This document shows positions 11,094-30,536 of a stretch of 64,000 nt of DNA, piece by piece. The DNA is taken from assembly GCA_965209055.1 (NCBI GenBank), contig OZ242374.1, positions 96,001 through 160,000 on the forward strand, read 5' to 3'. The stretch is from Acidobacteriota bacterium. Lineage in GTDB: Bacteria > Acidobacteriota > UBA6911 > RPQK01 > JAJDTT01. The notes under the pieces are model-generated. The model worked only from the letters and a program-made list of their open reading frames with translations. It searched no databases and was not told the origin of the DNA. The translations under genes and the position numbers were made by a program. The number at the start of each line of letters is the position of its first letter. Within the stretch, counting starts at the first letter, position 1.

Positions 11094-11152
11094 CACGGGG
11101 GGAATTCTACTATCGGCGCCAGGTGCCGCGCACCGAAAGTCGTTCCAAGGGG

Positions 11153-11606: not shown

Positions 11607-11611
11607 AGCAA

Positions 11612-14606: not shown

Positions 14607-14945
14607 ATGGAGGTTCACGCGGAGCGGGAAGGTGGCGCCTTGATCGCCCGGGCCGAGGGCCGTATCGATGGCGCCAACGCGCGTGAATTCGAGAATGCCC
14701 TGCATGCGGCGCTCGGCAAGGATGACAGTATGTTGATCCTGGATCTGCAGTCTCTCTCCTACATCAGCAGCGCGGGTCTTCGGGTCATTTTGATGGCTGC
14801 AAAAATTCTCCAGGGGCGGGGCGGAAAGTTCGTGGTCTGTTCGCTCTCGGAATCAATCGACGAGGTGTTTGAGATCAGTGGTTTCAACCGGATCATCCCG
14901 ACCCATGAGACCCGTTCCGATGCACTCGCCGCCCTTGGCGAGTAG
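14607..14945 (+). CDS. STAS-domain anti-sigma factor antagonist (RsbV/SpoIIAA-like), copy 1
   Basis: GRIDGANA, LDLQSLSYISSAGLR (phosphoacceptor Ser), VFEISGF; GGGAG RBS. Confidence 0.92.
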   Translation: MEVHAEREGGALIARAEGRIDGANAREFENALHAALGKDDSMLILDLQSLSYISSAGLRVILMAAKILQGRGGKFVVCSLSESIDEVFEISGFNRIIPTHETRSDALAALGE

Positions 14946-15138
14946 GCAGTCCCCAAGTACCCTTGATTGGGGGGCGCATCCGTCAGACAGGTGGCGACAA
15001 CGTCGCATCATGAGAATTTCTGGCCCCCAATGGCGGCCAATGCCGGGAAACGGACGTAATTGCTGCGACCGGCTCCCGGCGTAGTGTATGGATTTTCGGA
15101 AAGAGTAGGCTTGCGCCGGAGTCTACGGGAGACATGAA

Positions 15139-16329
15139 GTGGGAACGAATGATTTGGACCTGATGAACCGTCCGTGCAAGATCCTGGTGGTGGACGACGA
15201 ACCGGATCTTGAGCCGCTCATGCTTCAGCGTATGCGGCGGCCAATACGCTCCGGCCGGTACACTTTCGTGTTTGCCCGAAACGGTGTCGAAGCTCTCGAA
15301 CGGCTGAACGAGGAGCAGGACATCGACATGGTGCTGTCAGACATCAACATGCCCCAAATGGATGGGCTCACGTTGTTGCAGCAGATCCCCAAGGTCGATC
15401 CCAACATCCGTTCCGTCATCATTTCGGCGTACGGTGACATGAAGAATATCCGGACGGCGATGAACCGGGGAGCGTTTGACTTCGTCACCAAGCCGCTGGA
15501 TTTCAAAGACCTTCGAATCACCATCGACCGGACGGTCCAGCACATGATGGAGTGGCGCGAGGCCCTGGCTTCGCGGGACAAGCTGGTCGCGTTGCAGAAC
15601 GAACTCAATGTCGCCAACCAGATGCAGCAATCCATCCTTCCCAGTCAGTTCCCCAAGGGCACCGACTACGAAGTGTCCGCCAGCATGGAGGCGGCTCGCA
15701 ATGTGGGCGGAGATTTTTACGATGTCATCCACCTCCACGAAGGCCGGATCGGTCTGGCCATTGCGGACGTTTCGGACAAGGGAGTGCCTGCCGCGCTCTT
15801 CATGATGTCCAGCCGGACTCTGCTCAAGGGCGCCGCCATCGGCACTCTGGATCCGGGCCGGGTCCTGAGGGAGGTCAATAACCTGCTTGACGAGGACAAC
15901 GACGCCGCCATGTTCGTCACCCTCCTGTACGCGGTGTACGATCCGGCCAGCGGAGAACTGACCTACGCCAACGGCGGACACAACTCCCCGCTGGTCGTCC
16001 ATGCCGACGGACGCTCCTCTCTGCTTCCTCTCACTCATGGGATCGCCCTGGGTGTGATTCCCGACCTCGATTTCCACGAAAACACCGTGGTCCTTTCACC
16101 CGGAGACACCGTGGTTTTCTACACCGACGGCGTCACCGAGGCCATGGACGACGACGGCGAAGAGTTCGGTACGGAACGTCTGTTCGAGATCTTTGCGGAT
16201 GGGCCCCCGAAAGATTCCGAGGAGGCCAACAACGCGGTCTTCGAGGCGGTCAGGGACTTCGTCGGGGATACTCCTCAATCGGACGACATCACCTGCATGG
16301 TGCTCTATCGAAGGGAGAGCGATCGTTGA
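15139..16329 (+). CDS. Response-regulator receiver fused to SpoIIE/PP2C phosphatase (RsbU/RsbY-like)
   Basis: ILVVDDE, SDINMPQMDG, DFVTKP receiver motifs; VGGDFYD, IADVSDKG, NGGHN, YTDGVTE, SDDIT PP2C motifs. Confidence 0.93.
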   Translation: MGTNDLDLMNRPCKILVVDDEPDLEPLMLQRMRRPIRSGRYTFVFARNGVEALERLNEEQDIDMVLSDINMPQMDGLTLLQQIPKVDPNIRSVIISAYGDMKNIRTAMNRGAFDFVTKPLDFKDLRITIDRTVQHMMEWREALASRDKLVALQNELNVANQMQQSILPSQFPKGTDYEVSASMEAARNVGGDFYDVIHLHEGRIGLAIADVSDKGVPAALFMMSSRTLLKGAAIGTLDPGRVLREVNNLLDEDNDAAMFVTLLYAVYDPASGELTYANGGHNSPLVVHADGRSSLLPLTHGIALGVIPDLDFHENTVVLSPGDTVVFYTDGVTEAMDDDGEEFGTERLFEIFADGPPKDSEEANNAVFEAVRDFVGDTPQSDDITCMVLYRRESDR

Positions 16330-16745
16330 GCCGGAAGCTGGCCCTGAAGATTGCACCCAGGGCCGAAGAATTGGATACGATCACAGCCGCCGTGGAAGAA
16401 TTCGGCGACGCCGAGAAATGGCCGCCGCAACTCGTCTTTCGAGTCAATCTGGTGCTCGAGGAGTTGGGACTCAACATCATCAACCACGGCAGGACCGACG
16501 ATCTCCATGAGATCGAGATCACTTTGACCTCGGAACCGGGATCGCTCACCATCGAGATCGTGGACAATGGCCTTCCCTTCGATCCGTTGGAGGATGCGCC
16601 CTCGCCCGATCTGGACTCCGGAGTCGCAGACCGTGCCGTGGGCGGTCTGGGTGTCTACCTGGTGCGCACCATGATGGACGAGATGCACTATCGCCGCGAC
16701 GGAGGTAGAAACTACCTGACCCTGGTCAAAGAGTTGGCCGAGTGA
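16326..16745 (+). CDS. Anti-sigma factor / serine kinase (RsbW-like HATPase), copy 1
   Basis: LEELGLNIINHG, DNGLPFDP, GGLGVYLVRTMMDEMHY; TTG start overlaps the PP2C stop. Confidence 0.9.
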   Translation: MSRKLALKIAPRAEELDTITAAVEEFGDAEKWPPQLVFRVNLVLEELGLNIINHGRTDDLHEIEITLTSEPGSLTIEIVDNGLPFDPLEDAPSPDLDSGVADRAVGGLGVYLVRTMMDEMHYRRDGGRNYLTLVKELAE

Positions 16746-16924
16746 CGCCGGGATCCGCCATGGAGGCGCGCTCCAACTCCTCCCGGCTCCAAGCGCGCCA
16801 CGCCGGCGCGGCGGGTGGAACGGACGGCAACGTTCGCCATAGCCTGACGTTGGCAGTTCCAGGCTCCCAACCCCCGGTGCTGTCAAACACGCGAGCGATC
16901 TGATCGGTCGCCTATGGGTTCGCG

Positions 16925-17812
16925 ATGGACAGGGCCGCTGCCATGGAGACGCCGTCCGGCAAAGCTGCGGCGGATGAGAACTTCCCCGTCGGCTCCTGGT
17001 TGTTGCCGGCGGACCTGAGACCTCATATTGCAACCTTCTATGCCTATGCCCGGGCGATCGACGATATTGCCGACAACCCCGACCTGGATCCGGGAGACAA
17101 GATCGAGCGACTGGACGGCTTCGCCCGAGCGGTGAGGGGCGCCGAAACAGGTGATCCGGCTTTTGGCAAAGCTCACGCCGTCCGCCGCAGTCTGGAGATC
17201 ACGCAGGTCACCCATCGGCATTGTGTCGATCTGACGCGCGCCTTCATACAGGACGCGACCAAACTGCGGTATGCCGACTGGAACGATCTCATCGGTTACT
17301 GTGATCTTTCGGCAGCGCCCGTGGGGCGCTACCTGGTCGACCTTCATGGCGAATCGAAGGCCGCGTATCCCGCCTGCGACGCCCTTTGCAACGCGCTCCA
17401 GGTGCTCAACCACCTGCAGGACTGCGGACCTGACTACCGTTCGTTGAACCGGGTCTATCTTCCTCAGAACTGGATGGCGGCGGCCGGGGCCGGTGTCGAG
17501 GCGCTGGGACGCAGGCGTTCGACTCCGGCGCTCAGGCGAGTATTGAATCGGTGCCTCGATGCAACCGAGACGTTGTTGGAGTCGGCGGATCGCCTGCCGG
17601 ACCGGTTTCGCAACCTTCGTTTCGCCATGGAAACGGCCGTGATCGTAGCCATCGCCCGGAAGCTCAGCAGGGAGTTGCGCCGGCGGGACCCTTTGGCCGA
17701 ACGGGTCGTGCTGACCAAGGTTCAGTACGCGGCCTGCTTTTGGCGTGGAATCGGCCGGACCTTGCTCGTGAGGGTCCGGCGTCGGCGCACCGAAGCCGAA
17801 CAAGTAACATGA
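16925..17812 (+). CDS. hpnC: Hydroxysqualene synthase HpnC
   Basis: ENFPVGS, YARAIDDIAD, SAAPVGR, ALQVLNHLQD, RVYLP motifs. Confidence 0.92.
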   Translation: MDRAAAMETPSGKAAADENFPVGSWLLPADLRPHIATFYAYARAIDDIADNPDLDPGDKIERLDGFARAVRGAETGDPAFGKAHAVRRSLEITQVTHRHCVDLTRAFIQDATKLRYADWNDLIGYCDLSAAPVGRYLVDLHGESKAAYPACDALCNALQVLNHLQDCGPDYRSLNRVYLPQNWMAAAGAGVEALGRRRSTPALRRVLNRCLDATETLLESADRLPDRFRNLRFAMETAVIVAIARKLSRELRRRDPLAERVVLTKVQYAACFWRGIGRTLLVRVRRRRTEAEQVT

Positions 17813-17860
17813 TCGTCGTGTTTCCGATGAAGAAATGCGGGCTGGAGGGCCGACGTCGCA

Positions 17861-18793
17861 GTGGTTGTGCGACATGAAGGTTTCCGCCGCGGGAAGGCTG
17901 ACAACGTGAGGACGGTATCTCGATCGCAAGCCGGACCGGGAAGCCGGCCCGGCGGTCGGATCAATCCCGCGGATCACGTGAATCGTGTCGTAGCGCGTTC
18001 GGGCACGTCGTTCCTGTGGGGCATGAGAGCGCTTTCGGCGGAGCGGCGCCGTGCAATCTACGCCATCTATGCGTTCTGCCGGGAAGTCGACGACATTGCC
18101 GACGAACCGGGCGAAGACGCCGACAAGAGGCGAGCGCTGGCGGCATGGAGGCAAGAGATCGACCGGCTCTATGCGGGGGAGCCGAATTGGCCGACCACGA
18201 GGGCTCTGTTGAAACCGGTGCGCCGTTACAACTTGCCGCAAGAGGAATTCCTGGCGGTGATCGAGGGTATGGAAATCGATGCCGGGCCCACCGTGCGGAT
18301 GCAGAACCTGGATGATTTGTTGCACTATTGCCGCAAGGTCGCGGGAGCTGTCGGCAGGCTGTCCATCCATGCTTTCGGCGTGCCGCGCAACCCCGGATTT
18401 CAAATCGCCGAGACGCTGGGGAACGCTTTGCAACTGACGAATATCCTTCGTGACCTGAAGGCGGATGCGGCGCTGCATCGGCTCTACGTGCCACAGGAGT
18501 TGCTGAGCAAGCACGGCGTCGCCGCCACGTCGTTGAACGCAACCCTGAGTCATCCAGGCTTCAGCGCAGCCTGCGCCGAACTGGCCGGTCTCGCTCGAGG
18601 TTACTACGCCGAAACCGAAAGACTGATCGCCGAATTCGGATGGCGGAGGATTCGCCCTGCCGTTCTCATGATGGCGGTGTACCGGGAATTGCTCGATCGC
18701 CTGGAAGAGCGGGGATGGACGCGGCTCGACGTCGGCATCCGGCTGACGCGGTTCCGGAAGCTGCTGCTCGCTCTGCGTTACGGACTGTGCTGA
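17861..18793 (+). CDS. hpnD: Presqualene diphosphate synthase HpnD (start may be near 17906)
   Basis: SGTSFLWGM, YAFCREVDDIAD, VAGAVG, LQLTNILRD, RLYVP motifs. Confidence 0.92.
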   Translation: MVVRHEGFRRGKADNVRTVSRSQAGPGSRPGGRINPADHVNRVVARSGTSFLWGMRALSAERRRAIYAIYAFCREVDDIADEPGEDADKRRALAAWRQEIDRLYAGEPNWPTTRALLKPVRRYNLPQEEFLAVIEGMEIDAGPTVRMQNLDDLLHYCRKVAGAVGRLSIHAFGVPRNPGFQIAETLGNALQLTNILRDLKADAALHRLYVPQELLSKHGVAATSLNATLSHPGFSAACAELAGLARGYYAETERLIAEFGWRRIRPAVLMMAVYRELLDRLEERGWTRLDVGIRLTRFRKLLLALRYGLC

Positions 18794-18805
18794 CGGAGGT
18801 TCACC

Positions 18806-20083
18806 GTGCCCCGAACCCACGTCATCGGCGCCGGTTTGGCGGGTCTCGCCACCGCGGTGTCGCTGGTGCGGCGGGGCCGGGACGTGACGCTCTACGAAGC
18901 GGGCGGCCATGCGGGAGGCCGCTGCCGCTCCTACGCCGATGCCAAGCTTGAGCGCACGATAGACAACGGCAACCATCTGCTGCTGAGCGGCAACCGCGCC
19001 GCGATGCGCTACCTGGCTGACATCGAGGCCGCCGACTCCCTGATCGGCCCGGCTTCCGCCTGCTTTCCGTTCCTGGATTTGCGCACGGGTCAAAGGTGGC
19101 TGCTGCGGCCGAATGCCGGACGACTCCCGTGGTGGATCCTGAAGTCCGGGCGGCGGGTGCCGGACACAAGGGTCTGGAATTACTTTTCGGCGCTGCGGTT
19201 CGTCACGGCGGGTGCCGACGCGACCGTGACCGACTGCGTCGGAGGAACCGGCGTTCTCTTCGAGAGATTCTGGAAACCGCTGGCGGTCGGTGCATTGAAT
19301 ACGCCGGCTCGATCCGGGGCGGCGAGGCTCCTGTGGTCCGTTTTGCGTGAGACATTCGCCCGAGGGGAGGCGGCCTGCCGGCCGCGGATCGCCAAGACAG
19401 GACTCTCCGCCGCCTTCGTGGACCCGGCCCTGAAGTTCCTTCACCAAAGGGGCGCGACGGTTCGGTTCGGCCGCCGATTACGCAGGATCAGCTACCGGGG
19501 CCGCCGCGCGAACGGTCTGGACTTCGGCTCCGAAAGAATACGATTGCGGGAAGGCGGGTCCGTGGTACTGGCTGTTCCTCCTCTGGCTGCGGCGGAGCTG
19601 GTGCCGGGGTTGTCCGTCCCCGGCGAAACCCACGCCATCGTCAACGCTCATTTCCGGTTGTCCAAACCGGCCGGAATGCCGCCGGAGCTTCCTCTCCTCG
19701 GACTGATCGGGGGAACCGCGCAGTGGCTCTTCATTCGCGGCGACGTGGCTTCCGTCACCGTCAGCGCAGCGGACGCACTGGCAGGCGAGCCGGCAGAAGT
19801 CATTGCCCGCAGGAGTTGGAACGACGTTGCGGCGGCGTTGGGCCAGGAGCGCGAAAGGATACCCCGCTGCCGCGTCGTCAAGGAAAAGCGCGCCACGTTC
19901 GCGCAGACGCCCGGCCAGGTGAGGCGGCGTCCCTCGACCGGAAGCGAGTTCGCCAACCTGTTGCTGGCCGGGGATTGGATCGACACGGGTCTGCCCGCAA
20001 CCATCGAGAGCGCAGTTCGTTCCGGTCAGATGGCGGCTCGCGTCATAGCGGGATCCGGGACGCCTGGTGCGGAGCGCCCGTAG
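18806..20083 (+). CDS. hpnE: Hydroxysqualene dehydroxylase HpnE (FAD-dependent)
   Basis: GAGLAGL, GGRCRS, IDNGNHLLLSGN, EKRATF, AGDWIDTGLPATIESAVRSG. Confidence 0.92.
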   Translation: MPRTHVIGAGLAGLATAVSLVRRGRDVTLYEAGGHAGGRCRSYADAKLERTIDNGNHLLLSGNRAAMRYLADIEAADSLIGPASACFPFLDLRTGQRWLLRPNAGRLPWWILKSGRRVPDTRVWNYFSALRFVTAGADATVTDCVGGTGVLFERFWKPLAVGALNTPARSGAARLLWSVLRETFARGEAACRPRIAKTGLSAAFVDPALKFLHQRGATVRFGRRLRRISYRGRRANGLDFGSERIRLREGGSVVLAVPPLAAAELVPGLSVPGETHAIVNAHFRLSKPAGMPPELPLLGLIGGTAQWLFIRGDVASVTVSAADALAGEPAEVIARRSWNDVAAALGQERERIPRCRVVKEKRATFAQTPGQVRRRPSTGSEFANLLLAGDWIDTGLPATIESAVRSGQMAARVIAGSGTPGAERP

Positions 20084-20240
20084 CCGGTTGACGGGTTCGA
20101 TCAGACTCCCGGACCCTGGATCAATGACCGGAATGCGACAACGCGCATGGGGCCGGAAACCGCCGGTTGATCAATCCTGCGGCCGGGATATTTGATCCGG
20201 CAGCGGCCTTCCTGAAAATGGGAGGGGGGTCGTTACTGTG

Positions 20241-20250
20241 TGCTATGATT
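20241..20250 (+). promoter_or_regulatory. Putative extended -10 promoter element upstream of the oxygenase/export operon
   Basis: TGCTATGATT, identical to 14531-14540, within a 390-bp intergenic region. Confidence 0.35.
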
Positions 20251-20474
20251 TGTTGCTGACTCGGTCCAGGGAATTGGATCGAGCATAAAACCCTTTACGG
20301 CGGGCACTTTCGGCGCATCCGCATGTGATTGGCTGGCACGCGCGGCGCATTGATCGGGCCTGGAGATTCACCGTCGAATCTGGAATGGCCTTCGACCGGG
20401 ACAGTTCTCCGGACGGAGCGTCCTGAAGATCCGCTGCTGTCCATCAGTCAGGCAGACTGTCAGGAGATCGACGA

Positions 20475-21647
20475 ATGCTGCAATCCCCCTCGGCATATGT
20501 CGAGGGCTACCGGGAGGCCCGGCGCTACGACCAGACGCTTGCCGACAGCTATATCCGGCACACAACCGTCGGCGACCCCGCGCTCGATCCGGTGATGGAC
20601 GAGGTCTCCTCGTTGCCGCCCCACGTATTGCATCGATTCATCCGAGCCGGGATCGACCAGGACGAAGAGGGTCTTCGCGCCGCGCCGCAGTCACTGCGCG
20701 GTTTTTTCGAGAATCTGGAAGATCCCCCCTGGTTCGACTACGAAGCTTTTCGTCCCGGCGTCCGGGCCTTTCACCTGAACACGACGAAAATCCTCGTCGC
20801 CTTTGTCACGGGCGTGCTGATCGAGGGATTTGCGACGCTGATCGCCAAGTCTTTCGCCACGACGGGACGCGTCTTGAGCCCCTTGACCGCGAGAAGGCGC
20901 CTGATGCAGAACAACCGCCATCTGCTGGAGGTGTTTTTCCCCGGAGGTCTGCGGAGGGATGGAGATGGTTGGAAGCTCTCCATGCGCCTTCGCTTCGTTC
21001 ACGCCCGAGTGAGGCACCTGTTGGCGAATTCCGACGCTTGGGATGCCGATGCTTGGGGTACGCCGATCAGCGCGGCGCACCTGGGTTTCGCCACCACCGT
21101 CTTTTCCATGCGCCTGCTCCAGCATTCGATTTCCGTGGGGGCCAGGTATTCCGGGGAGGAGCGAGAGAGTGTGCTGCAAGTCTGGCGATACGCCGGGTAC
21201 GTCATGGGGGTGCCCGAGTCCATCCTCTTTTCCAGTGAAAGCCACGCGCGCGAAATATTCGATGTAGCCCACATGTGCGAGCCGACCCCGGACAGTGATT
21301 CGGCCACCATGGCCAACGCGCTGGTAGAGGCGATTCCCCTGACGGCGGGAATCGAAGACCCGGAGGAACAGGTCGCCGTGAAGGACCTGGCCTACCGGCT
21401 GTCACGCTCCCTGATCGGAAACAGGCTTGCCGACCAGTTGCAGTTTCCAAAGTCGAATACCTTGGGTGTGCTGTTCGCTTACCGGTTGAAACAACGTTTT
21501 CAGCATCTGCTCAAGAGCCAGCAGTTGATCAGGTCGGAGAATTTTTGCCAGATGCTCGAAATCTCGGTCTACGACGAGGCCGTGTTGGGCGCGATGAGTT
21601 ACAAATTGCCTGACCACGTTCGGGCGTCGAAATCGAGTCCCTGGTGA
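20475..21647 (+). CDS. MpaB/Lcp-like (DUF2236) heme oxygenase family protein
   Basis: GDPALD, PPWFD, GDGWKLSMRLRFVHARVRHLL (putative heme His), WD..AWGTPIS, WRYAGYVMGVPE; no signal peptide; AGGAG RBS. Confidence 0.8.
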   Translation: MLQSPSAYVEGYREARRYDQTLADSYIRHTTVGDPALDPVMDEVSSLPPHVLHRFIRAGIDQDEEGLRAAPQSLRGFFENLEDPPWFDYEAFRPGVRAFHLNTTKILVAFVTGVLIEGFATLIAKSFATTGRVLSPLTARRRLMQNNRHLLEVFFPGGLRRDGDGWKLSMRLRFVHARVRHLLANSDAWDADAWGTPISAAHLGFATTVFSMRLLQHSISVGARYSGEERESVLQVWRYAGYVMGVPESILFSSESHAREIFDVAHMCEPTPDSDSATMANALVEAIPLTAGIEDPEEQVAVKDLAYRLSRSLIGNRLADQLQFPKSNTLGVLFAYRLKQRFQHLLKSQQLIRSENFCQMLEISVYDEAVLGAMSYKLPDHVRASKSSPW

Positions 21648-23947
21648 ACGAAGGTATGACGTCGCCCTTCTTGGACCGCTACATTGCTGTTGTCCTGAAC
21701 CACCGCTGGACGGTGTTGGTGGTTGCGACAGTGGTCATGCTGGTCATGACGGCAGGTGCCCGGTACATCACCACCACGAACGACTACCGAATTCTGTTCG
21801 ACGAAGACAATCCCCAACTCGCCGCATTCGATGCCCTGGAGAACACCTATGCCGCATCCAACAGGGCATTGATCGCCATTGCGCCCGGGGCGGGTTCCGT
21901 ATTCACGCTCGAGGCGCTTGGGGCGATCGAGGAACTGACCGAAGCTGCCTGGGGCGCCCCCTATTCCACACGGGTCGATTCCCTCACCAACTATTCCCAT
22001 AGCGAAGCGGTCGAGGACGACCTGGTGGTCGAGCCGCTGGTCGATGACGCACAGTCTCTGAACGATGCCGACCTGGCCCGAATCCGGACGATTGCGCTGA
22101 ATGCTTCCGAGATCGCCGGGCGCCTGGTCTCCACCGACGGCCGAGTCGGCGGCTTGACCATCAATTTCGTCCTGCCCGAAGATCCGGACGCCGCGGTGGC
22201 GGAGATCAACGACTATCTCAACGCCGCTCTGGAAGAGGCTCGCGGACGGCATCCTGAAATCGCCTATTTCCTGACCGGCGATGTCGTCATGCACCGCGCC
22301 TTCGCCGAAGCCACACAGGACGATCTTCAGATCCTGGTTCCCATCGTTTTTCTGGTGATCGCGGCCTCCGCCGCGATTCTTCTGCGCTCGTTTCTTGCCA
22401 CCCTGTCCATCTCGGTCCTGCTCGTATTCATCGTCAACACGACAATGGGGTTGGCGGGCTGGCTCGGAACCGTGATGAGTCCGACCAATGCCGGGGTACC
22501 CATTATCGTGATGGCGGTCGCCGTTGCGGATTCAATTCACATCGTCACCAGCACCTTGCTGGGCATGAGCCGCGGTTTGAGCAGGAACGCCGCGATCGCG
22601 GCATCCGTGCGGACCAATGCTTATCCCGTATTTCTGACGACTCTCACAACGGTGATCGGCTTTCTCAGCCTGAACGCTTCGGACTCGCCTCCGTTTCGCG
22701 TCCTGGGCAATCTGGTGGCGTTCGGTGTTTCTTGTGCTTTCGTTTATTCCATGTTGCTTCTGCCGGCGGTGCTTTCGATCCTGCCGCTGCGCGCGCGCCG
22801 GCTGCTCCCTGAAAAGACTCTCTTCTTCGAACGCTTCGGCGCCTTTGTCGTGGCCAAGCGCAGATTTCTGCTCTGGTTCGTTCCCCTCATCGCCATAGGC
22901 CTCGTCATGGGCATCCCCCGCAACCAGTTGAGCGACAATTGGCCCAAGTATTTCGACGAGCGCTACCAGTTCCGGCGCGATACGGATTTCGTCATCGAAA
23001 ACCTGACCGGCTTGGATACGCTGGAGTATTCGCTGAAAGCGGGACGGGAAGGCGGCATCACCGATCCCGAATATCTGGGCGCCGTCGAGAAATTCGCCGA
23101 ATGGTACCGCACGCAACCCGAAGTGACCCATGTCCAGGCGTTCCCGGACATCATGAAACGCCTGAACAAGAACATGCACGGCGACGACCCCGGTTACTAT
23201 CGGTTGCCGGACGACCCCGAACTCGCGGCCCAATACCTGTTGGTCTACGAGCTGTCGCTTCCCTTCGGCAATGACCTGAACAACCGGATCGACATCGCCA
23301 AGTCCGAGACCCGCATGACGGTGACGGTCCGTGACTCTTCGTCGCGGGGCCTGCGCGAGTTGGACGCTCGCGCTCAAGATTGGCTCCGCGCCAACCTGCC
23401 CCATCGAGTCGTGCCGGCCACGGGCCTCAGTGTGGTCTTTGCCCACCTTTCTCTTCGAAACATCGAAAGCATGCTGCGGGGGACGATCATTGCCATGGCC
23501 ATCGTCTCGTTCATCCTGGTCCTGATATTCCGGAGCGTGCGCCACGGACTCATCAGTCTGATTCCCAACTTCATTCCTGCGGCAATGAGCTTCGGATTCT
23601 GGGGCTATCTGGTGGGCAATCTGGGTCTGGCCGGTTCCGTGATGACCGCGATTGCGTTCGGTATCGTCGTAGACGACACGATTCATTTCCTGACCAAGTA
23701 TCTGAAGGGGCGCCGCCAGGGCCTGGATGCGGCCGCGGCCGTGCGTTCCACATTCAACACTGTCGGAAAGGCTCTGTGGACCACGACTGCGGTCTTGTCG
23801 GCCGGCTTCCTGGTGTTCGCTTCATCGGGATTCGAGGTCAGCCGGTCGCTCGGACTCATGGTCACGATCACCATAGTGTTCGCGCTTCTCGCCGATTTCT
23901 TTCTGCTGCCGCCTCTGTTGATGGCCCTCGATCGGAGAAAATCATGA
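21644..23947 (+). CDS. MMPL/RND family lipid transporter
   Basis: 767 aa, two repeats with AVAVADSIH and GIVVDDTIHF, TTLTTVIGFLSL; overlaps the oxygenase stop (GTGA). Confidence 0.9.
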   Translation: MNEGMTSPFLDRYIAVVLNHRWTVLVVATVVMLVMTAGARYITTTNDYRILFDEDNPQLAAFDALENTYAASNRALIAIAPGAGSVFTLEALGAIEELTEAAWGAPYSTRVDSLTNYSHSEAVEDDLVVEPLVDDAQSLNDADLARIRTIALNASEIAGRLVSTDGRVGGLTINFVLPEDPDAAVAEINDYLNAALEEARGRHPEIAYFLTGDVVMHRAFAEATQDDLQILVPIVFLVIAASAAILLRSFLATLSISVLLVFIVNTTMGLAGWLGTVMSPTNAGVPIIVMAVAVADSIHIVTSTLLGMSRGLSRNAAIAASVRTNAYPVFLTTLTTVIGFLSLNASDSPPFRVLGNLVAFGVSCAFVYSMLLLPAVLSILPLRARRLLPEKTLFFERFGAFVVAKRRFLLWFVPLIAIGLVMGIPRNQLSDNWPKYFDERYQFRRDTDFVIENLTGLDTLEYSLKAGREGGITDPEYLGAVEKFAEWYRTQPEVTHVQAFPDIMKRLNKNMHGDDPGYYRLPDDPELAAQYLLVYELSLPFGNDLNNRIDIAKSETRMTVTVRDSSSRGLRELDARAQDWLRANLPHRVVPATGLSVVFAHLSLRNIESMLRGTIIAMAIVSFILVLIFRSVRHGLISLIPNFIPAAMSFGFWGYLVGNLGLAGSVMTAIAFGIVVDDTIHFLTKYLKGRRQGLDAAAAVRSTFNTVGKALWTTTAVLSAGFLVFASSGFEVSRSLGLMVTITIVFALLADFFLLPPLLMALDRRKS

Positions 23948-24768
23948 TTTACTCTTGTTCCGTCCGGTCTCCCCTCGCGCATGTGGTTCCTGCCGTCGTC
24001 GTCATGGCCTGTCTGGCTTCGCCGGCGTTCGCCCGTTCCGACGACGCTTCCCCCGAAGAAATCGGCCTGAAGATTGCGCTCGAAGCGCGGGAGCAGGGAG
24101 ACGGATTCGGCAATTTTACGGCTCAACAGACCATGGTGTTGCGGAACAAGCAGGGGAAGCAGAGTCGGCGCCAACTCCGGGTCAGGGTGCTCGAAGTGCC
24201 CGGAGACGGAGACAAGAGCATGTTCGTCTTCGATGAGCCGCGGGACGTCAAGGGAACGGCTTTCCTGATCCACGCCCATCGCGACAAGGCGGACGACCAG
24301 TGGCTCTATCTCCCGGCGCTGAAGCGGGTGAAACGGATCAGTTCGTCGAACCGCTCCGGCTCCTTCATGGGCAGCGAGTTCGCCTATGAGGACATGAGCG
24401 CGCAGGAAGTGGAGAGATTCAGCTACCGATACCTGCGGGACGAGCCTTGCGGCGAGTTGACGTGCACCGTCTCCGAGCGCGTCCCTGTGGACAAGAAATC
24501 GGGTTACCGCAGGCAGTTGGTCTGGCAGGACAAAGACGCGTTTCGCGTTTGGAAGGTGGAATACTACGATCGCAAGGATTCGCACCTGAAGACCCTCACC
24601 TTGAGGAACTACCGGCAGTACCTGGATCGCTACTGGCAGGCGGGCGAGATGACGATGGTGAATCATCTCACCGGGAAAAGCACCGTTCTGACATGGACGG
24701 AATATGAATTCCGGACCAAGCTCAACGATCGCGACTTCACCCGCACCGGGCTGCAACGGATTCGTTAA
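23944..24768 (+). CDS. Outer membrane lipoprotein-sorting (LolA-like) periplasmic protein
   Basis: Signal peptide; FDEPRDVKGTAFL, DDQWLYLPALKRVKRI, SFMGSEFAYED; ATGA overlap with MMPL. Confidence 0.88.
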   Translation: MIYSCSVRSPLAHVVPAVVVMACLASPAFARSDDASPEEIGLKIALEAREQGDGFGNFTAQQTMVLRNKQGKQSRRQLRVRVLEVPGDGDKSMFVFDEPRDVKGTAFLIHAHRDKADDQWLYLPALKRVKRISSSNRSGSFMGSEFAYEDMSAQEVERFSYRYLRDEPCGELTCTVSERVPVDKKSGYRRQLVWQDKDAFRVWKVEYYDRKDSHLKTLTLRNYRQYLDRYWQAGEMTMVNHLTGKSTVLTWTEYEFRTKLNDRDFTRTGLQRIR

Positions 24769-26018
24769 TGCCCCGCCGTCTCGTCATTCGGTGCGCGCGA
24801 TTCTGCACTGCGGGGCTTCTCATCCCAGTCTGTATTGGCGGACTCCGGGCCGAGATCGTCAGGCACGAGACTTCGGGGCGCGTGAGCCTTGAAAGCCGGT
24901 GGCATCCCCAAAGTGCGGCGTACCCCGGCCAGCGTTCACACGCAAGCGGTCTGGCCATCGAGCCCGAATTCTATCTCGAAGACCATGGAGGCCGGAGCTT
25001 CAATCTGGCGCCGTTTTTTCGTTACGACGCCGGGGACCCGAGCCGAACCCATGTCGATCTGCGTGAAGCCTACCTTCTGCTGTTCGGCGACGTCGCGAAT
25101 AGCGAATGGGAGCTCCGTCTAGGGGTGGACCGGGTGTTCTGGGGAGTCACCGAATCCCGCCACCTGGTCAACATCGTCAACCAGATCGACCTGGTGGAAC
25201 ATCCCTACAAGGAACCCAAGCTGGGCCAACCCATGGCCCACCTTACTTTTTCCGGCGATTGGGGAACGGCGGAAGTCTTCGGCCTGACGTATCACCGTGG
25301 CCGCACCTTTCCGGGCCGCTTCGGCCGTCTGCGACTTCCGTTTGTTGTGGACAACGACATGATTTCCTATGAGAGCGACGCCAAGCAGTGGCATCTGGAT
25401 TTAGCCGGCCGCTACAGTCGCAGTTTCGGGCCTCTCGACCTGGGCATGAGCGTTTTCGACGGCACCAGTCGAGATCCCTTTCTGACTCTGGATCCGGGCC
25501 TCTCCGGAGAACCGGCCTTGGTCCCATACTACGAGCAGATCCGGCAGTTCGGGCTGGACGCCCAGGTGACGGCCGGGTCCTGGCTGTTCAAGCTCGAGGC
25601 GATTCGGCGAACCGGCGCCCAAAACCTTCTCGGCGTGGAAGAAGACTACTCGGCTTCCACGTTTGGCGGCGAGTACACGTTCTATTCCGTATCCGGCTCG
25701 GCGTTGGATCTTACGCTGCTCAGCGAATGGAACTACGACGACCGGCGCCAATATGCCACCAACATCTTCCAGAATGATTTTTTCCTGGCCGCGAGGATAG
25801 CCTTCAACGACGTTCAGAGCACCGAGCTTCTCGCCAGCATTCTGCGAGACGCCGACAGTTCAGGACAGGTGCTGACTCTGGAATTGAACCGGCGCATCTC
25901 GGATCAGTGGTCTCTGCGTCTGGAGTCGATCGCCTTTCGGGGTATCCAGGAAGTGGATCTCACCTATTTGACTCGGCGCGACAGCTTCGTCGAATTGGCC
26001 TTGATTTACAATTTTTGA
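24768..26018 (+). CDS. Putative outer-membrane beta-barrel protein
   Basis: Signal peptide, DLREAY and VFWGVTES..LVNIVNQID motifs, amphipathic strands, C-terminal YNF (BAM signal); TAATG coupling to the upstream gene. Confidence 0.75.
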   Translation: MPRRLVIRCARFCTAGLLIPVCIGGLRAEIVRHETSGRVSLESRWHPQSAAYPGQRSHASGLAIEPEFYLEDHGGRSFNLAPFFRYDAGDPSRTHVDLREAYLLLFGDVANSEWELRLGVDRVFWGVTESRHLVNIVNQIDLVEHPYKEPKLGQPMAHLTFSGDWGTAEVFGLTYHRGRTFPGRFGRLRLPFVVDNDMISYESDAKQWHLDLAGRYSRSFGPLDLGMSVFDGTSRDPFLTLDPGLSGEPALVPYYEQIRQFGLDAQVTAGSWLFKLEAIRRTGAQNLLGVEEDYSASTFGGEYTFYSVSGSALDLTLLSEWNYDDRRQYATNIFQNDFFLAARIAFNDVQSTELLASILRDADSSGQVLTLELNRRISDQWSLRLESIAFRGIQEVDLTYLTRRDSFVELALIYNF

Positions 26019-26254
26019 GGGTCGCCGGGTTCCCTCGGCATCAGGCAGCCGCGCCGCTCAAATCGCCGGCTCGGGCGTCCTCAGGCGGGAAAAGGAGTCG
26101 GCCTCATCAGTGGCATTCAGCCTTCCGTACCATTTCCCGGCAACGAAAACCATCTGCCGACCGTGGCGTGGTGGTTTCGCTTGAAGGTCCACCGGTGGTA
26201 ATATCGCGGCAAATTGTCGGAAGGATTAGGTCACAATATCCGGGAGTCAGAGCA

Positions 26255-26593
26255 ATGGAGGTTCACGCCGAGCGGGAAGGAGGGATCTTGATCACCCGAG
26301 CGGAGGGCCGTGTCGACGGCACCAATGCCCGCGAATTCGAGGAGGCGCTCCACGCAGTAATCGGGGAGGACGATCGTCTCCTGATCATGGACTTACAAGA
26401 TCTTTCCTACATCAGCAGTGCCGGCCTTCGAGCTTTTCTGATGATTGCAAAGAAGCTGCAGGGACGAGGTGGAAAGCTCGTTGTGTGCTCGCTCACCGAT
26501 ACCATCAACGAGGTGTTTGAGATCAGTGGTTTCAGCAGAATCATCCCCACTCACGCCTCCCGGTCCGAAGCCGTCGCCAAACATGGCGGATAG
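26255..26593 (+). CDS. STAS-domain anti-sigma factor antagonist, copy 2
   Basis: 112 aa, about 74% identical to copy 1 by manual alignment; LSYISSAGLR. Confidence 0.92.
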   Translation: MEVHAEREGGILITRAEGRVDGTNAREFEEALHAVIGEDDRLLIMDLQDLSYISSAGLRAFLMIAKKLQGRGGKLVVCSLTDTINEVFEISGFSRIIPTHASRSEAVAKHGG

Positions 26594-26761
26594 GATCTAA
26601 TCGTGGAGACCGGAGTGGATGCCGGTCGAGTCTGCTGCGTCGCACTGTCGGGGCGCGCCCGATGACCGGCCGTATTCGCAAGCGGACGGGAATTGCGCCG
26701 GTGACAAGGCACAGTCGCCCGTCGTCTCCTTTATGAGGTTCAGTCTGAGCGAGAGGCGTCG

Positions 26762-27181
26762 TTGAGCCGAAAGCTGTCCCTGGAAATCGACCCCAGAGTT
26801 GAGGAACTGAGTGTGATTACGGCCGCTGTGGAGCAGTTCGGCGACGCGGAAAAATGGCCGTCCGACATGATCTTTCAAATCAACCTGGTGATCGAAGAGC
26901 TGGGACTCAACATCATGACCCACGGGAAGACCAAGAACCTCGAGAAGATCGAGATCACGCTGACCGCGGAAGGTGAGTCCCTCACCGTCGAAATCGTGGA
27001 CAACGGCCATCCGTTCGATCCGACCAGCGAGGCTCCCGAGCCCGATCTGGATGTGGAATTAGGGGAACGCACCATCGGCGGCCTCGGGATCCATATCGTA
27101 CGCAGCCTGGTGGACAACTTGCGCTATCGGCGTCAGGGGGGGAGAAACCACGTGACTCTGGTCAAGGAGCGGGTCCGGTGA
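26762..27181 (+). CDS. Anti-sigma factor / serine kinase (RsbW-like), copy 2
   Basis: 139 aa paralogue of 16326-16745; EELGLNIMTHG, DNGHPFDP, GGLGIHIV. Confidence 0.9.
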   Translation: MSRKLSLEIDPRVEELSVITAAVEQFGDAEKWPSDMIFQINLVIEELGLNIMTHGKTKNLEKIEITLTAEGESLTVEIVDNGHPFDPTSEAPEPDLDVELGERTIGGLGIHIVRSLVDNLRYRRQGGRNHVTLVKERVR

Positions 27182-28362
27182 AGCGATGGTCCGGCCGGCC
27201 GGCCGGCGTCCTCATTTTGGTGGCCGCATGGTTGCTGACAGCATTGCCGGTTCCGGCGCAGGAACCCGGCGTTTCCGACGACCGCATTCTCTTCGGACAG
27301 TCCGCCGCTTTCAGCGGTCCTGCCCAGGAGTTGGGTATCAGCATGCGTCTCGGCATCCAGGCCGCCTTCCACGAGGTCAACCGGGCGGGCGGCATCGATG
27401 GCCGTCGGCTGGAGTTGACGTCGCTGGACGATGCCTACGAACCGGAGGCCGCCGTTGCCAATACCGTCACTCTGATCAGGGAACAAGAGGTCTTCGCTCT
27501 CATCGGCGCAGTCGGCACACCCACCTCACGCGCGGCCGTACCGGTTGCCGCGGACGCCAGCGTGCCGTATATCGCCCCCTTCACGGGTGCCGAGTTCCTG
27601 CGCGCCGCCGAGTGGAGCAACGTCATCAACCTTCGGGCCTCCTACAACCAGGAGACCGAAGAAATGGTAGCCAGGTTGACTGAGGACATGGGAATCAAGC
27701 GGATCGCCGTATTGTTCCAGGACGATTCCTTCGGCCGGGCCGGATACCGTGGGGTTCGGGCCGCGCTCGATCGACGGAATATGACGCCGGTGGCCATCGG
27801 CCTTTACCCTCGCAATACCCTGGCGGTAAAGATGGCTCTCCTGGACATCAACGACGGGGACCCCAAAGCCGTGATTCTCATCGGCGCGTACAAACCTCTC
27901 GCCACATTCATTTCCTGGGCCCGGTTTTCGGGCCTCCAAGCCGTATTCATGAACATCTCCTTCGTCGGCAGCAACGCGTTGGCGAAGGAGCTCGGCTCCG
28001 CCGGCGCCGGTGTTTACGTCACTCAGGTCGTGCCCTTCCCGACCGACAAATCGCGTTCCATCGTCCGCGACTACAATCGCGCCCTTGCCGCCTACGCATC
28101 CGGCGTGGTTCCCGGGTTCATCTCCTTCGAAGGCTATCTGGCCGGGCGCCTGGCCATTGCCGGCCTGAAGCAGTCCGGGGGTGAGATTAGTCGAGCCGGT
28201 TTTCTGGACGGTTTTCGCCAAGCCGGAATGATGGACCTCGGTGGGTTCCGGCTTCGTTTCGGCGACCAGGACAACCAGGGATCGGATGCCGTTTATCTGA
28301 CCGTAATCGGTCGTGACGGTCAATATCGTCCCATCAGCTCAATGCTGGAAGCGGCGCCGTGA
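27178..28362 (+). CDS. Periplasmic ligand-binding protein (type I, branched-chain amino acid ABC SBP-like)
   Basis: Signal peptide; FGQSAAFSGPA, LDDAYEP, GAVGTPTS, RASYNQE; no ABC permease or ATPase nearby. Confidence 0.85.
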   Translation: MKRWSGRPAGVLILVAAWLLTALPVPAQEPGVSDDRILFGQSAAFSGPAQELGISMRLGIQAAFHEVNRAGGIDGRRLELTSLDDAYEPEAAVANTVTLIREQEVFALIGAVGTPTSRAAVPVAADASVPYIAPFTGAEFLRAAEWSNVINLRASYNQETEEMVARLTEDMGIKRIAVLFQDDSFGRAGYRGVRAALDRRNMTPVAIGLYPRNTLAVKMALLDINDGDPKAVILIGAYKPLATFISWARFSGLQAVFMNISFVGSNALAKELGSAGAGVYVTQVVPFPTDKSRSIVRDYNRALAAYASGVVPGFISFEGYLAGRLAIAGLKQSGGEISRAGFLDGFRQAGMMDLGGFRLRFGDQDNQGSDAVYLTVIGRDGQYRPISSMLEAAP

Positions 28363-30536
28363 TCGAACGACTGAACCGCTTGCTCGGTAGTCTGCTGCAG
28401 AGTCGCTTTCGGATCTCGACGCAGCTCTACGTCACCATCGGAGGCGCCGTCGCCCTGACGATCGCCGCGAGTCTCGTGGGCTGGTTTTCCTTTGACCGCG
28501 TGGGCGATCTGCAGCGGCGGGTCAATGAACTTCGGTTCCCGGAATTGGAGGCCGCGTTCGGTGTGGCGCAGTACAGCGCCGCCCTGGTCGCGGCTGCGCC
28601 TCGGCTGACCACCGCCGAAACGACCGACGACTTCGCCCAGGTTGCGGCAAGCATCAACGAGTCGAAAACGGCGCTCGAGGAGCAGTTGGCCGTTTTGGAG
28701 CGCCAGGATGCGGCCGACGAACGTTTCCGGCGCATTCGCGCTCACGCCGATACCTTGAGATCGAACATCGAGGCCATCGAAACCGACATGTCGGCGATTT
28801 ACGAATTGGCCGAGCGGAGTTCGGCTCTGCGCACCGAACTCGCGGATCTGCAAGGACGCCTGCAGCGGGTCATCTTCCCGACCGTGGATGACCAATTCTT
28901 TTACACCATCACGGGACACCGAACCTTGGGGGAGCCTCCGGCTCCTCGTTGGAAACATTTCTCGGAAGATCAGTTCGATCGCTTTCGTCACTTGACCGAT
29001 CTGCTGGCGGACGCCAATACCGCCACGCAACTTCTGGACAGTGCTTTCACGGTTTCGGACGCCTTCCTGATCGAGCCTTTGCGAGACAAGTTCGAGGCGT
29101 CTCGCAATCGCATCGAAAGGAGCCTGTCGTCGCTGGGAGAGTCCGAATTGCTTGGGCAGATCTCCGCCGACTTCCAACTTCTTTTCGAGTTGGGCGCCGG
29201 AGAGGAGGGCTGCCTCAATCTGCTGGTCCGCCAATTGAGACTGACCGCGCGGCAGAGAGACCTCTTGGCGGAGAACCGCGGAATCGCCATTGACCTGGTG
29301 GCGGCCGTCGACGAGTTGGTGAAAGCGTCTCAGGCGAGAGCGGCAGCCGACACTCAAGAATCCACACAAGCCATTCTGGCGGGCCGAGTCCTCCTCGTCG
29401 CCATCAACGGGCTCAGCATCGTCGGCGCCGTGCTCATCGCCTGGCTGATCGTGGGACGGATACTGCTGCGCCGCCTGGCGCTGTTGTCGCAGCGCATGCG
29501 GCGAATGGCCGGGGGAGAACTGGAGGGCAAGGTCGAGATCGAAGGAAGGGACGAGGTGGCCGACATGGCCGCCGCCCTGGAGGTGTTTCGGCGCCACGCG
29601 CTGGAGGTCCAGCGTCTGAACCTGGTGGAGAAGCTGGCAGAGGAATTGCGGGGTAAGAACGAACAGTTGGAGAGCGTCCTCGCCGACTTGCGGAAAGCTC
29701 AGGACCAGATCGTCATGCGTGAAAAGCTGGCGGCGCTCGGTGAGCTCACCGCGGGCGTTGCCCATGAGATCAAGAATCCTTTGAACTTCGTCAAGAACTT
29801 CGCGGAGGCGTCGCAGGAACTCCTGGAGGAACTCCAGGAAGTCCTGGAAGAAGAAGGCGAGAAACTGAGTAAGGACGACCGCGAGCTGGTCGCGGAGCTG
29901 ATTCAGGACATCACCGACAATCTACGCCGCATCCACCAGCACGGCGAACGGGCCAACCGGATCGTTCACGACATGCTTATGATGGGCCGTGGCTCGGGCG
30001 AATGGCAGGTGACGGACGTCAACAACCTGCTCGACGAGCACACCCGTCTTGCCTACCACAGCGCGAGGGCGACCGATCCCGATTTCCAGCTCCATATGGA
30101 GATGAGTCTGGACCCGGAGGCCGGTCAATTCGAAGTCGTTCCGCAGGACATGGGCCGGGTTTTTCTGAACATGGTGGGCAACGCCTGCTACGCCACCGAT
30201 CAGAAACGGCGCGCGGCGATCGAGGCGGGGAAAGGCTTTTTCGACTACATGCCGACTCTGTGGGTCGCCACCCGGCGTCTCGAAGACCGGATCGAGGTCC
30301 GAATCAAGGACAATGGGAACGGAATTCCGCCTGAGATCGTAGAAAAGATCTTCAATCCGTTCTTTACCACGAAACCCACCGACCAGGGAACGGGCCTGGG
30401 CCTTGCTCTCTCCAACGACATCGTGCGGGAGCATGGAGGATCCATTCGAGTGGAAACCGAACCCGGCGAGTTCACCGAAATGATTGTCGAAGTCCCCGTG
30501 ATGCGCCCCGTTGCCATGGAAGGGGCTTCGGGGTAG
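28359..30536 (+). CDS. Membrane sensor histidine kinase (large helical TorS-like periplasmic domain, HAMP, HisKA, HATPase)
   Basis: Two TMs; GRDEVADMA HAMP; AGVAHEIKNPLNF H-box; N box NMVGNA; DNGNGI, FNPFFTTK, GTGLGL. Confidence 0.93.
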   Translation: MIERLNRLLGSLLQSRFRISTQLYVTIGGAVALTIAASLVGWFSFDRVGDLQRRVNELRFPELEAAFGVAQYSAALVAAAPRLTTAETTDDFAQVAASINESKTALEEQLAVLERQDAADERFRRIRAHADTLRSNIEAIETDMSAIYELAERSSALRTELADLQGRLQRVIFPTVDDQFFYTITGHRTLGEPPAPRWKHFSEDQFDRFRHLTDLLADANTATQLLDSAFTVSDAFLIEPLRDKFEASRNRIERSLSSLGESELLGQISADFQLLFELGAGEEGCLNLLVRQLRLTARQRDLLAENRGIAIDLVAAVDELVKASQARAAADTQESTQAILAGRVLLVAINGLSIVGAVLIAWLIVGRILLRRLALLSQRMRRMAGGELEGKVEIEGRDEVADMAAALEVFRRHALEVQRLNLVEKLAEELRGKNEQLESVLADLRKAQDQIVMREKLAALGELTAGVAHEIKNPLNFVKNFAEASQELLEELQEVLEEEGEKLSKDDRELVAELIQDITDNLRRIHQHGERANRIVHDMLMMGRGSGEWQVTDVNNLLDEHTRLAYHSARATDPDFQLHMEMSLDPEAGQFEVVPQDMGRVFLNMVGNACYATDQKRRAAIEAGKGFFDYMPTLWVATRRLEDRIEVRIKDNGNGIPPEIVEKIFNPFFTTKPTDQGTGLGLALSNDIVREHGGSIRVETEPGEFTEMIVEVPVMRPVAMEGASG

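Follow-up and report, generated by a model that had tools for sequence, protein, structure and literature searches.

Fourteen genes at positions 14607-30536 of the window, a stretch of 64,000 nucleotides (nt) of contig OZ242374.1 from an Acidobacteriota bacterium, appear to encode a modular terpenoid system that would make, cut and export its product and that carries its own sensor in the cell envelope. We give this reading a probability of about 0.5. Three sets of genes are involved: the squalene synthesis genes hpnC, hpnD and hpnE; a core of four genes, in which mpaB (for an oxygenase of the MpaB/Lcp family) is followed by genes for an MMPL-type pump, a LolA-like carrier and an outer-membrane barrel; and signalling genes on either side, including those of a periplasmic binding protein (PBP) and a sensor histidine kinase (HK). 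The strongest single argument is that two non-homologous routes to squalene have each been recruited beside the core in related loci, which points at squalene.

The locus is about 16 kb long and lies wholly on the plus strand. The co-orientation of its 14 genes, their positions and their domains, all put forward in the original prediction, were confirmed with Pfam and NCBIfam (Table 1). The gene order is STAS, receiver-PP2C, RsbW-type HATPase_c_2, HpnC, HpnD, HpnE, MPAB_Lcp_cat, MMPL, LolA_like, a weak DUF1302 barrel, a second STAS, a second RsbW-type protein, Peripla_BP_6 and a HAMP-HisKA-HATPase kinase. Two starts were corrected from the translations: the LolA-like gene begins at 23944 (MIYSC...) and not at an upstream TTG, and STAS2 begins at 26255 with MEVHAE..., as STAS1 does at 14607. 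Neighbouring genes overlap by 1-4 nt at six junctions (receiver-PP2C/RsbW1, mpaB/MMPL, MMPL/LolA, LolA/barrel, RsbW2/PBP and PBP/HK), while five gaps of 168-391 nt set apart six likely sub-units. On its upstream side the locus is bounded by a minus-strand FG-GAP gene (13002-14417), and from 30648 onwards the locus gives way to an unrelated ATP-grasp/alpha-E/transglutaminase set. An Rfam scan of 14000-31000 returned zero matches. When the spacer between hpnE and mpaB was aligned with those of the related loci L001, L002 and L017, the only stretch clearly common to all was the ribosome-binding stretch before the ATG.

The MpaB-family protein, of 390 amino acids (aa), belongs to the Lcp/MpaB family by Pfam, by profile-to-PDB comparison and by fold, so that the "modify" step of the original prediction holds as a family call. 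A profile of 20 MpaB homologues matches Lcp K30 (5o1l/5o1m) at an E-value of 1e-8. In this alignment the proximal haem ligand of Lcp, H198, falls on H176, and Lcp R164 on R142, both of which are invariant in 20/20 sequences. The AlphaFold (AF2) model (predicted local distance difference test score (pLDDT) 80.5, predicted template modelling score (pTM) 0.82) matches the same Lcp structures in Foldseek with a template modelling (TM) score of 0.62-0.70 (E 2e-6); the next match is t-anethole oxygenase, also an alkene-cleaving enzyme. As the protein lacks an N-terminal signal sequence and has one internal hydrophobic helix (104-125), it is a putative cytoplasmic or membrane-associated haem-b alkene-cleaving oxygenase. 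C=C cleavage in an isoprenoid or polyene chain is common to all of its characterised relatives; published accounts describe Lcp as a secreted rubber oxygenase (PMC5522427), fungal MpaB' as cutting the terminal C19=C20 bond of the farnesyl chain of a farnesylated aromatic compound (bioRxiv 10.1101/524025), and Nro1 as an enzyme of the MpaB family that is bound to a membrane and breaks down nitrile rubber by cleavage (PMC12724181).

The 44 C-terminal residues of the oxygenase (347-390) include many invariant positions (for example R353, N356, F357, Q359, Y366, P379, H381 and W390), and despite this strong conservation they are modelled at a pLDDT of about 30. The tail looks like a partner-binding or membrane-binding element that needs its partner or the membrane to fold. 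Searching for longer, fused forms of MpaB of 684-2000 aa gave none at E 1e-20, which is weak evidence, and look-alikes in the ESM Atlas belonged to MpaB-family clusters only.

HpnC, HpnD and HpnE each exceed the equivalog cut-off of their NCBIfam model, and the corresponding "make" step of the original prediction is borne out at this level, squalene formation itself being predicted. The hpnC-hpnD and hpnD-hpnE gaps are 48 nt and 12 nt. The match to the HpnD model covers residues 44-308, and the true start of this protein may lie downstream of the GTG at 17861. Of the 133 open reading frames (ORFs) of at least 150 aa in the window, 131 were scanned and none showed a squalene-hopene cyclase domain; the remaining two run off the window end. 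Six related loci that were scanned in full likewise have no hopanoid genes, squalene-hopene cyclase included, and their flanks are unrelated.

To see how widely these genes are associated, relatives of the MpaB-family protein were collected. The protein collection holds 1,384 of them at E 1e-5 or better, and a pattern scan limited to one genome per species yielded 334 loci encoding one; the 80 best of these were retained, together with flanks of at most 10 kb. All 80 are from metagenome-assembled genomes and fall into eight phylum-level groups, labelled from record titles and further lookup. The 14 window proteins were mapped on to the loci by tblastn, all ORFs of the loci (simple longest-ORF calling) were clustered, and recurrent clusters were annotated; the counts that follow refer to genes within 10 kb of mpaB. 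MMPL, LolA-like and barrel genes all accompany mpaB in 65/80 loci, and none of the three is near it in 6/80, two of which are on contigs shorter than 5 kb. A complete hpnCDE set occurs in 12/80 loci and a partial one in 3/80. A further 23/80 encode a relative of the single-enzyme squalene synthase (Sqs-type, an SQS_PSY protein of about 355 aa), for which the best NCBIfam model is squal_synth (103-120 bits, under the cut-off of 286.75) and the best PDB matches are squalene synthases. The low-identity SQS_PSY neighbours had also been considered as phytoene synthases, an assignment dropped in view of these best models and PDB matches. Taken together, one or other squalene route lies near the core in 38/80 loci from 6/8 groups.

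Genes for earlier isoprenoid steps are found in the same neighbourhoods. IspH is encoded in 31/80 loci and Dxs in 9/80, and mevalonate genes occur upstream of mpaB in 7/80, all of them from Gammaproteobacteria, as an HMG-CoA reductase::mevalonate kinase fusion (6 loci) and/or an IPP isomerase (6 loci); the scores for all three activities exceed the respective NCBIfam cut-offs. With all these genes counted together, mpaB has one or more isoprenoid genes nearby in 47/80 loci, covering 7/8 named groups (16/16 Gammaproteobacteria, 5/5 Opitutales, 14/19 Acidobacteriota, 5/11 Latescibacterota, 4/9 Gemmatimonadota, 2/3 Binatia, 1/3 Alphaproteobacteria and 0/13 Nitrospirota). Since genes more than 10 kb away fall outside the count, the 0/13 for Nitrospirota says nothing of their genomes. 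Co-occurrence of the sub-modules in other genomes, the lack of which the original prediction had itself named as a refutation, is seen both for squalene-type synthases (38/80) and for the PBP with its kinase (20/80, see below).

Some further genes recur around the core. In ten loci (L009-L013, L019, L021, L023, L044 and L080) a trio stands beside the Sqs-type gene and IspH, consisting of a second PBP (35-40% identical), an sCache_3 protein and a transporter of the MFS type, which scores above the cut-off of the model for L-lactate transporters. An extra gene of the flavin adenine dinucleotide (FAD)-dependent amine-oxidase family lies between the MMPL and LolA-like genes in L014, L015, L016, L019, L020 and L031 (e.g. 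L019:13473-14867), of which five are from Nitrospirota and one is from Opitutia. Among NCBIfam models HpnE fits this gene best (86 bits, under the cut-off), and L020 has a second copy, 39% identical to the first.

The three genes after mpaB correspond, as a domain set, to the "export" step of the original prediction: a probable HAE3 RND pump is encoded with a LolA-like protein and a barrel, as in the terpene pump AmeABD, by analogy with which export is proposed. The MMPL protein has about 12 hydrophobic segments. The LolA-like protein has an N-terminal hydrophobic segment and matches PDB entry 3bk5 at E 1e-82, as well as 4z48 and 3buu. The barrel protein is 416 aa long and ends in ...YNF; its AF2 model shows a signal helix and about 18 strands (pLDDT 72), and Foldseek relates it to porins and AlgE (TM 0.44-0.59), while a PDB sequence search with it gave zero matches. 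The AmeABCD system of Castellaniella defragrans unites an HAE3 pump with three further proteins (DUF1302 at the outer membrane, DUF1329/LolA and BNR) and is described as serving efflux of and tolerance to apolar monoterpenes (PMC6394551). The same DUF1302/DUF1329/BNR/RND four-gene set is reported to be cofit in Shewanella and Pseudomonas (bioRxiv 10.1101/072470), and in Thalassolituus an MMPL-LolA fusion and a neighbouring porin are reported as induced on n-C28 (PMC6304351).

Among the signalling genes, both STAS proteins pass the anti-sigma-antagonist model TIGR00377, and the serine motif SYISSAGL is present in STAS1, as are the receiver Asp and PP2C Asp motifs in receiver-PP2C (all by eye). 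The phosphatase carries the locus's sole receiver domain, and its nearest NCBIfam model is RssB, at 113 bits far under the cut-off of 700. The PBP matches PDB entry 4kv7 at E 7e-95 and is 55-92% identical to kinase-adjacent homologues in 19 other loci. The kinase consists of a transmembrane segment, a periplasmic domain of about 295 residues, a second transmembrane segment, HAMP, HisKA and HATPase, with hydrophobic segments at about 22-45 and 337-377. By Pfam it has no receiver or HPt domain, TorS_sensor_domain scores 15.9 against a cut-off of 27, and a PDB sequence search with the periplasmic domain gave chance-level matches only. The sensor had been predicted to be coupled to an alternative sigma factor. 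This part of the prediction is not supported: no sigma-factor domain was found in the same 131 ORFs of the window or among the recurrent neighbours of the related loci.

The PBP and kinase genes are near the core in 20/80 loci from five groups, including 11/13 Nitrospirota, in co-oriented, divergent and convergent arrangements. The receiver-PP2C gene is present in 15/80 loci, which are 15/15 of the PBP-plus-kinase loci that have sequence upstream of the PBP. STAS occurs in 18/80 loci and RsbW in 11/80, and in Nitrospirota no RsbW adjoins the sensor module. Neither isoprenoid nor signalling genes are nearby in 19/80 loci. The placing of the biosynthetic and export genes inside a partner-switching circuit, as originally proposed, is correct for the lineage of L001, L002 and L017 (3/80), and does not extend to the other loci, where the modules are shuffled or, in the 19 just mentioned, the core stands alone. 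An 846-aa HAMP-PP2C membrane phosphatase is found with RsbW and STAS near mpaB in L050, L056 and L068-L070 (e.g. L070:13374-15914), from Terriglobia and Longimicrobiales. There it forms a second kind of input, in place of the one seen in the window, and this second type of switch suggests that the core recruited such switches more than once. A secreted protein of about 256 aa, with no Pfam or NCBIfam match, a barrel-like sequence pattern and an aromatic C-terminus, is encoded near signalling genes in ten loci (L010-L013, L050, L056 and L068-L071, e.g. L010:7343-8113).

The 14-gene layout is found in 3/80 loci, all from Acidobacteriota: L001 and L002, which have the exact order and whose proteins are 88-96% identical to those of the window, and L017, which has both copies of receiver-PP2C. 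In L017, hpnCDE and the core are bracketed by a direct repeat of STAS/receiver-PP2C/RsbW of 2,222 nt (3788-6000 and 16169-18389, 97.7% identical), which could allow excision or amplification of the cassette. L037 has an uninterrupted STAS/receiver-PP2C/RsbW/PBP/HK operon, divergent from mpaB; a transglutaminase-like gene follows the cassette there too. In the window, STAS1 and STAS2 are 74% identical in protein and 75% in DNA, and RsbW1 and RsbW2 63% and 72.5%, respectively. Given the uninterrupted operon of L037, the direct repeat of L017 and the duplicated STAS and RsbW genes of the window, the layout most likely arose when a cassette of hpnCDE plus core entered a resident STAS/receiver-PP2C/RsbW/PBP/HK operon by homologous recombination, duplicating the STAS and RsbW genes.

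The core part of the cassette (20475-26018) is, to judge from its sequence identities, a mosaic. The MpaB-family protein of the window is 76% identical to the Gemmatimonadota and Latescibacterota versions (L004-L007) and 63% to that of L017, from which it also stands apart in the MpaB tree, whereas the MMPL, LolA-like and barrel proteins are 72-77% identical to those of L017 and 61-73% to the L004-L007 versions. The MpaB tree mixes phyla, with 21 label changes against a minimum of 6 (0/200 shuffles as low). Pairwise distances of the four core proteins are correlated (r 0.57-0.74, 0/500 permutations, 61 loci), and transposase genes of the mutator family and of the rve type are found less than 10 kb from the core in L016, L024, L040, L056, L068-L070 and L074. 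The mixing in the tree, the correlated distances and the nearby transposases therefore suggest that the core has been transferred repeatedly as a unit, to which pattern mislabelled bins and shared ancestry could contribute. Conservation of the core is unusually high: MpaB is about 60% identical between phyla and among the most conserved proteins of the set (mean pairwise difference 0.31). Together with the mixed tree, this conservation across phyla suggests that the trait passes from lineage to lineage under strong selection.

From the established family memberships, fold, haem ligand, gene coupling and co-occurrence, we infer a substrate, a product, a direction of transport, a sensed ligand and an output as follows. 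HpnC, HpnD and HpnE would convert farnesyl diphosphate to squalene, an activity assigned through equivalog-level membership. The MpaB/Lcp-family protein, as a haem-b dioxygenase, would then cleave a trisubstituted C=C bond of squalene at the cytoplasmic face of the inner membrane, giving an aldehyde and a ketone and hence a shortened "apo-squalenoid". The putative HAE3 pump, the LolA-like carrier and the barrel, presumably of 16-18 strands, would carry this apolar product (or squalene) out of the cell, as AmeABCD does for monoterpenes; the export step and its direction are proposed because of the domain architecture and the translational coupling of mpaB with the pump, LolA-like and barrel genes. 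The PBP would report its ligand to the kinase, which would phosphorylate receiver-PP2C, and the phosphatase would determine how far the STAS proteins are phosphorylated, with the RsbW kinases working in the opposite sense; the output may be something other than a sigma factor. For the order of these relay steps, the conserved gene order is the guide.

Several observations weigh against this reading. Squalene is a putative substrate, deduced from gene context, and the true one may be another lipid. By eye, the invariant Q145 and N146 stand at the positions of the distal Lys167 and Thr168 of Lcp, and the proposed base of Lcp, Glu148, aligns to Ser126, so the chemistry of the oxygenase may differ from that of Lcp. 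Isoprenoid genes are lacking within 10 kb in 33/80 loci, including all 13 from Nitrospirota. A hopene cyclase may be encoded elsewhere in the genome, hpnCDE then serving hopanoid synthesis. Between hpnE and mpaB there is a gap of 391 nt, and a consensus scan of 14000-31000 found 4 promoter-like and 12 terminator-like sequences against 3.2 and 14.4 in shuffles, which is uninformative on operon structure. The best NCBIfam model for the pump, TIGR00921 (HAE3), scores 165.7 bits, below its cut-off of 351.9. A counterpart of the BNR protein AmeC (COG4447) is absent from 14607-30536, and none is found among the recurrent neighbours of the related loci. The PBP family is best known for amino acids. 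Lastly, the authors of the Thalassolituus study read their MMPL-LolA system as related to uptake (PMC6304351).

Other explanations share part of this evidence. The pump set might be a hopanoid-free counterpart of HpnN that supplies the outer membrane with a structural lipid, either uncut squalene or some other isoprenoid of the envelope, with MpaB only trimming, turning over or regulating the pool. The known lipid role of HAE3 pumps is that of HpnN in moving hopanoids (PMC6394551). LolA-like carriers shuttle lipidated cargo to the outer membrane, and the Dxs, IspH and mevalonate genes beside the core suggest a flux larger than a trace signal would call for. An accessory role is, however, hard to square with mpaB, which is the anchor gene, highly conserved and overlapping the pump gene by 4 nt, and the MMPL protein is far under the HpnN models (TIGR03480, 73.5 vs 751.85; NF052374, 24.7 vs 1100); we regard this explanation as unlikely. 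A slightly lower probability is given to an oxygenase that acts on some other isoprenoid (such as polyprenols, the side chains of quinones or polyenes resembling carotenoids), the squalene genes being adjacent through the clustering of isoprenoid genes. The 33 loci with no isoprenoid gene nearby agree with this, IspH, Dxs and mevalonate genes feed all isoprenoids, and the substrate of MpaB' is reported as a farnesylated aromatic compound (bioRxiv 10.1101/524025). Against it, HpnCDE and Sqs-type routes each lie beside the core, jointly in 38 loci of six groups, and no phytoene desaturase/cyclase set or prenyltransferase is among the recurrent neighbours.

It is a little less probable again that the core is a device for tolerance to, or catabolism of, foreign apolar isoprenoids or hydrocarbons, which it would oxidise and then expel, and is not biosynthetic. 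AmeABCD is described as conferring monoterpene tolerance, the Thalassolituus MMPL-LolA protein as responding to n-C28, and Lcp and Nro1 as degradative enzymes, and the 19 loci where the core has neither isoprenoid nor signalling neighbours would fit such a role. Biosynthetic genes that would raise squalene flux are nevertheless beside the core in 47/80 loci, the oxygenase is not secreted, and no beta-oxidation or aldehyde-dehydrogenase genes recur beside the core. Finally, the five intergenic gaps leave room for separate promoters, and the full layout is seen in just three loci, as would be expected if unrelated operons lay side by side by chance. This we consider very improbable: it is contradicted by the neighbourhood census, in which the modules recur together in varied order and orientation in several phyla, and the chance of a single-copy gene lying within 10 kb of another in a genome of about 5 Mb is estimated at less than 1%.

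Returning to the make-cut-export reading, a more specific and doubtful extension of it is that the core is a horizontally mobile cassette by which uncultured bacteria from many phyla make and release the "apo-squalenoid" aldehyde or ketone as a diffusible or volatile signal or defence compound, sensed by the relay of PBP, kinase and partner switch, in a terpenoid communication loop, cell-to-cell or directed at a host, of a type that is so far not known from bacteria. The parts of the cassette are of known kinds; their combination, its breadth and its mobility were not found described. In particular, the open full-text literature (subscription journals being outside its scope) yielded no description of this cassette or of an MpaB/Lcp-family gene linked with squalene synthesis. 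If the reading is true, bacterial squalene gains a fate beyond hopanoids and sterols, namely oxidative cleavage and export, and the large bacterial branch of the MpaB/Lcp family outside rubber degradation gains a first physiological role.

The rest of the window includes the set that follows the locus (30648-35450), made up of circularly permuted ATP-grasp, alpha-E and transglutaminase-like genes and interrupted by an ammonium transporter gene at 32162-33553. Two BNR-repeat proteins are encoded at 40804-41961 (-) and 43489-44925 (+), 10-13 kb past the downstream end of the locus. Pfam gives no match for several long ORFs, among them 5438-7915 (-), 11021-12988 (+) and 59224-63875 (-). Other annotated features are included in Table 1.

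Table 1. Genes of the locus and other annotated features of the window, with their coordinates and the profile matches on which they were named (scores in bits).
Feature	Position	Strand	Evidence
STAS1, RsbV/SpoIIAA-type anti-sigma-factor-antagonist family	14607..14945	+	Pfam STAS 71.5; TIGR00377 83.2 vs cut-off 53.45
Response-regulator receiver fused to PP2C (SpoIIE) phosphatase (receiver-PP2C)	15139..16329	+	Pfam Response_reg 87, SpoIIE 187.5
RsbW1, RsbW/SpoIIAB-type serine kinase or anti-sigma-like	16326..16745	+	Pfam HATPase_c_2 92.4
HpnC, squalene synthase step of three-enzyme route (predicted)	16925..17812	+	TIGR03464 270.5 vs cut-off 250.45; Pfam SQS_PSY
HpnD, presqualene diphosphate synthase (predicted)	17861..18793	+	TIGR03465 310.9 vs cut-off 278.6; Pfam SQS_PSY
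HpnE, hydroxysqualene dehydroxylase, FAD enzyme (predicted)	18806..20083	+	TIGR03467 388.6 vs cut-off 283.05; Pfam Amino_oxidase
MpaB/Lcp-family, putative haem-b alkene-cleaving oxygenase	20475..21647	+	Pfam PF09995 (MPAB_Lcp_cat) 68.6 vs 23
HAE3/MMPL-type RND inner-membrane transporter	21644..23947	+	Pfam MMPL 97.7; TIGR00921 (HAE3) 165.7
LolA-like periplasmic carrier, signal sequence	23944..24768	+	Pfam LolA_like 206.8; DUF1329 32.8 vs 23.1
Outer-membrane beta-barrel, weak DUF1302 relative	24768..26018	+	Pfam DUF1302 26.7 vs cut-off 23.2
STAS2, STAS1 paralogue	26255..26593	+	Pfam STAS 73.6; TIGR00377 77.9 vs 53.45
RsbW2, RsbW1 paralogue	26762..27181	+	Pfam HATPase_c_2 85.6
Periplasmic binding protein (PBP), type I, Leu/Ile/Val-binding-protein fold family, signal sequence	27178..28362	+	Peripla_BP_6 187.8
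Sensor histidine kinase (HK)	28359..30536	+	Pfam HAMP, HisKA, HATPase_c
HlyD/AcrB-type RND pair	104..4365		
Sulfatase	9558..11159	-	
Putative addiction-module antitoxin	42346..42894	-	
1,359-aa TonB-dependent receptor with carboxypeptidase-regulatory domain	49731..53810	-	

The locus can be compared with five kinds of known system. Hopanoid loci (hpnCDE with shc, hpnH and hpnN) often also carry ispH and dxs. The present locus resembles them in hpnCDE, in the IspH and Dxs of its relatives and in a nearby RND pump, probably of the HAE3 family, and differs from them in that the pump fails the HpnN models and no cyclase or other hopanoid gene occurs in the window or in the six scanned loci. The signalling genes share with RsbU/RsbV/RsbW and RssB a STAS antagonist, an RsbW-type kinase and a PP2C phosphatase with receiver input. 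Here, however, no sigma factor gene is nearby, one phosphatase serves two STAS/RsbW pairs, and the input is a binding-protein-dependent kinase. TorT/TorS and LuxP/LuxQ are binding-protein-dependent sensor kinases, and the likeness to them lies in the 4-nt overlap of the PBP gene with the kinase gene and in a kinase whose two membrane helices enclose a large periplasmic domain and precede HAMP; unlike theirs, the kinase is not a hybrid, and the PBP is of the Leu/Ile/Val-binding type.

With Lcp, MpaB' and Nro1 the oxygenase shares its Pfam family, its fold and the conserved proximal His and Arg, and, as with MpaB' and Nro1, it lacks secretion and is perhaps located at a membrane. From Lcp it differs by an identity of only about 20%, by Gln and Asn in place of the distal Lys and Thr and by the missing secretion signal, and from all three by the conserved tail at 347-390 and by a gene context of squalene synthesis and a pump. 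The likeness to AmeABCD consists in an RND pump probably of HAE3 type, a DUF1329-like protein of the LolA superfamily and a DUF1302-like outer-membrane protein encoded beside each other, and the PDB entries named for the AmeB family (3bk5, 4z48 and 3buu) are those matched by the LolA-like protein here. Besides the missing BNR gene, the differences, as compared by domain and length, are that the barrel has 416 aa against 605 aa for AmeA and barely passes the DUF1302 cut-off, and that the pump is coupled to an oxygenase and biosynthetic genes here and to a catabolic island there. The locus would provide another natural context for the little-studied class of pumps made up of HAE3, LolA-like and DUF1302 proteins.

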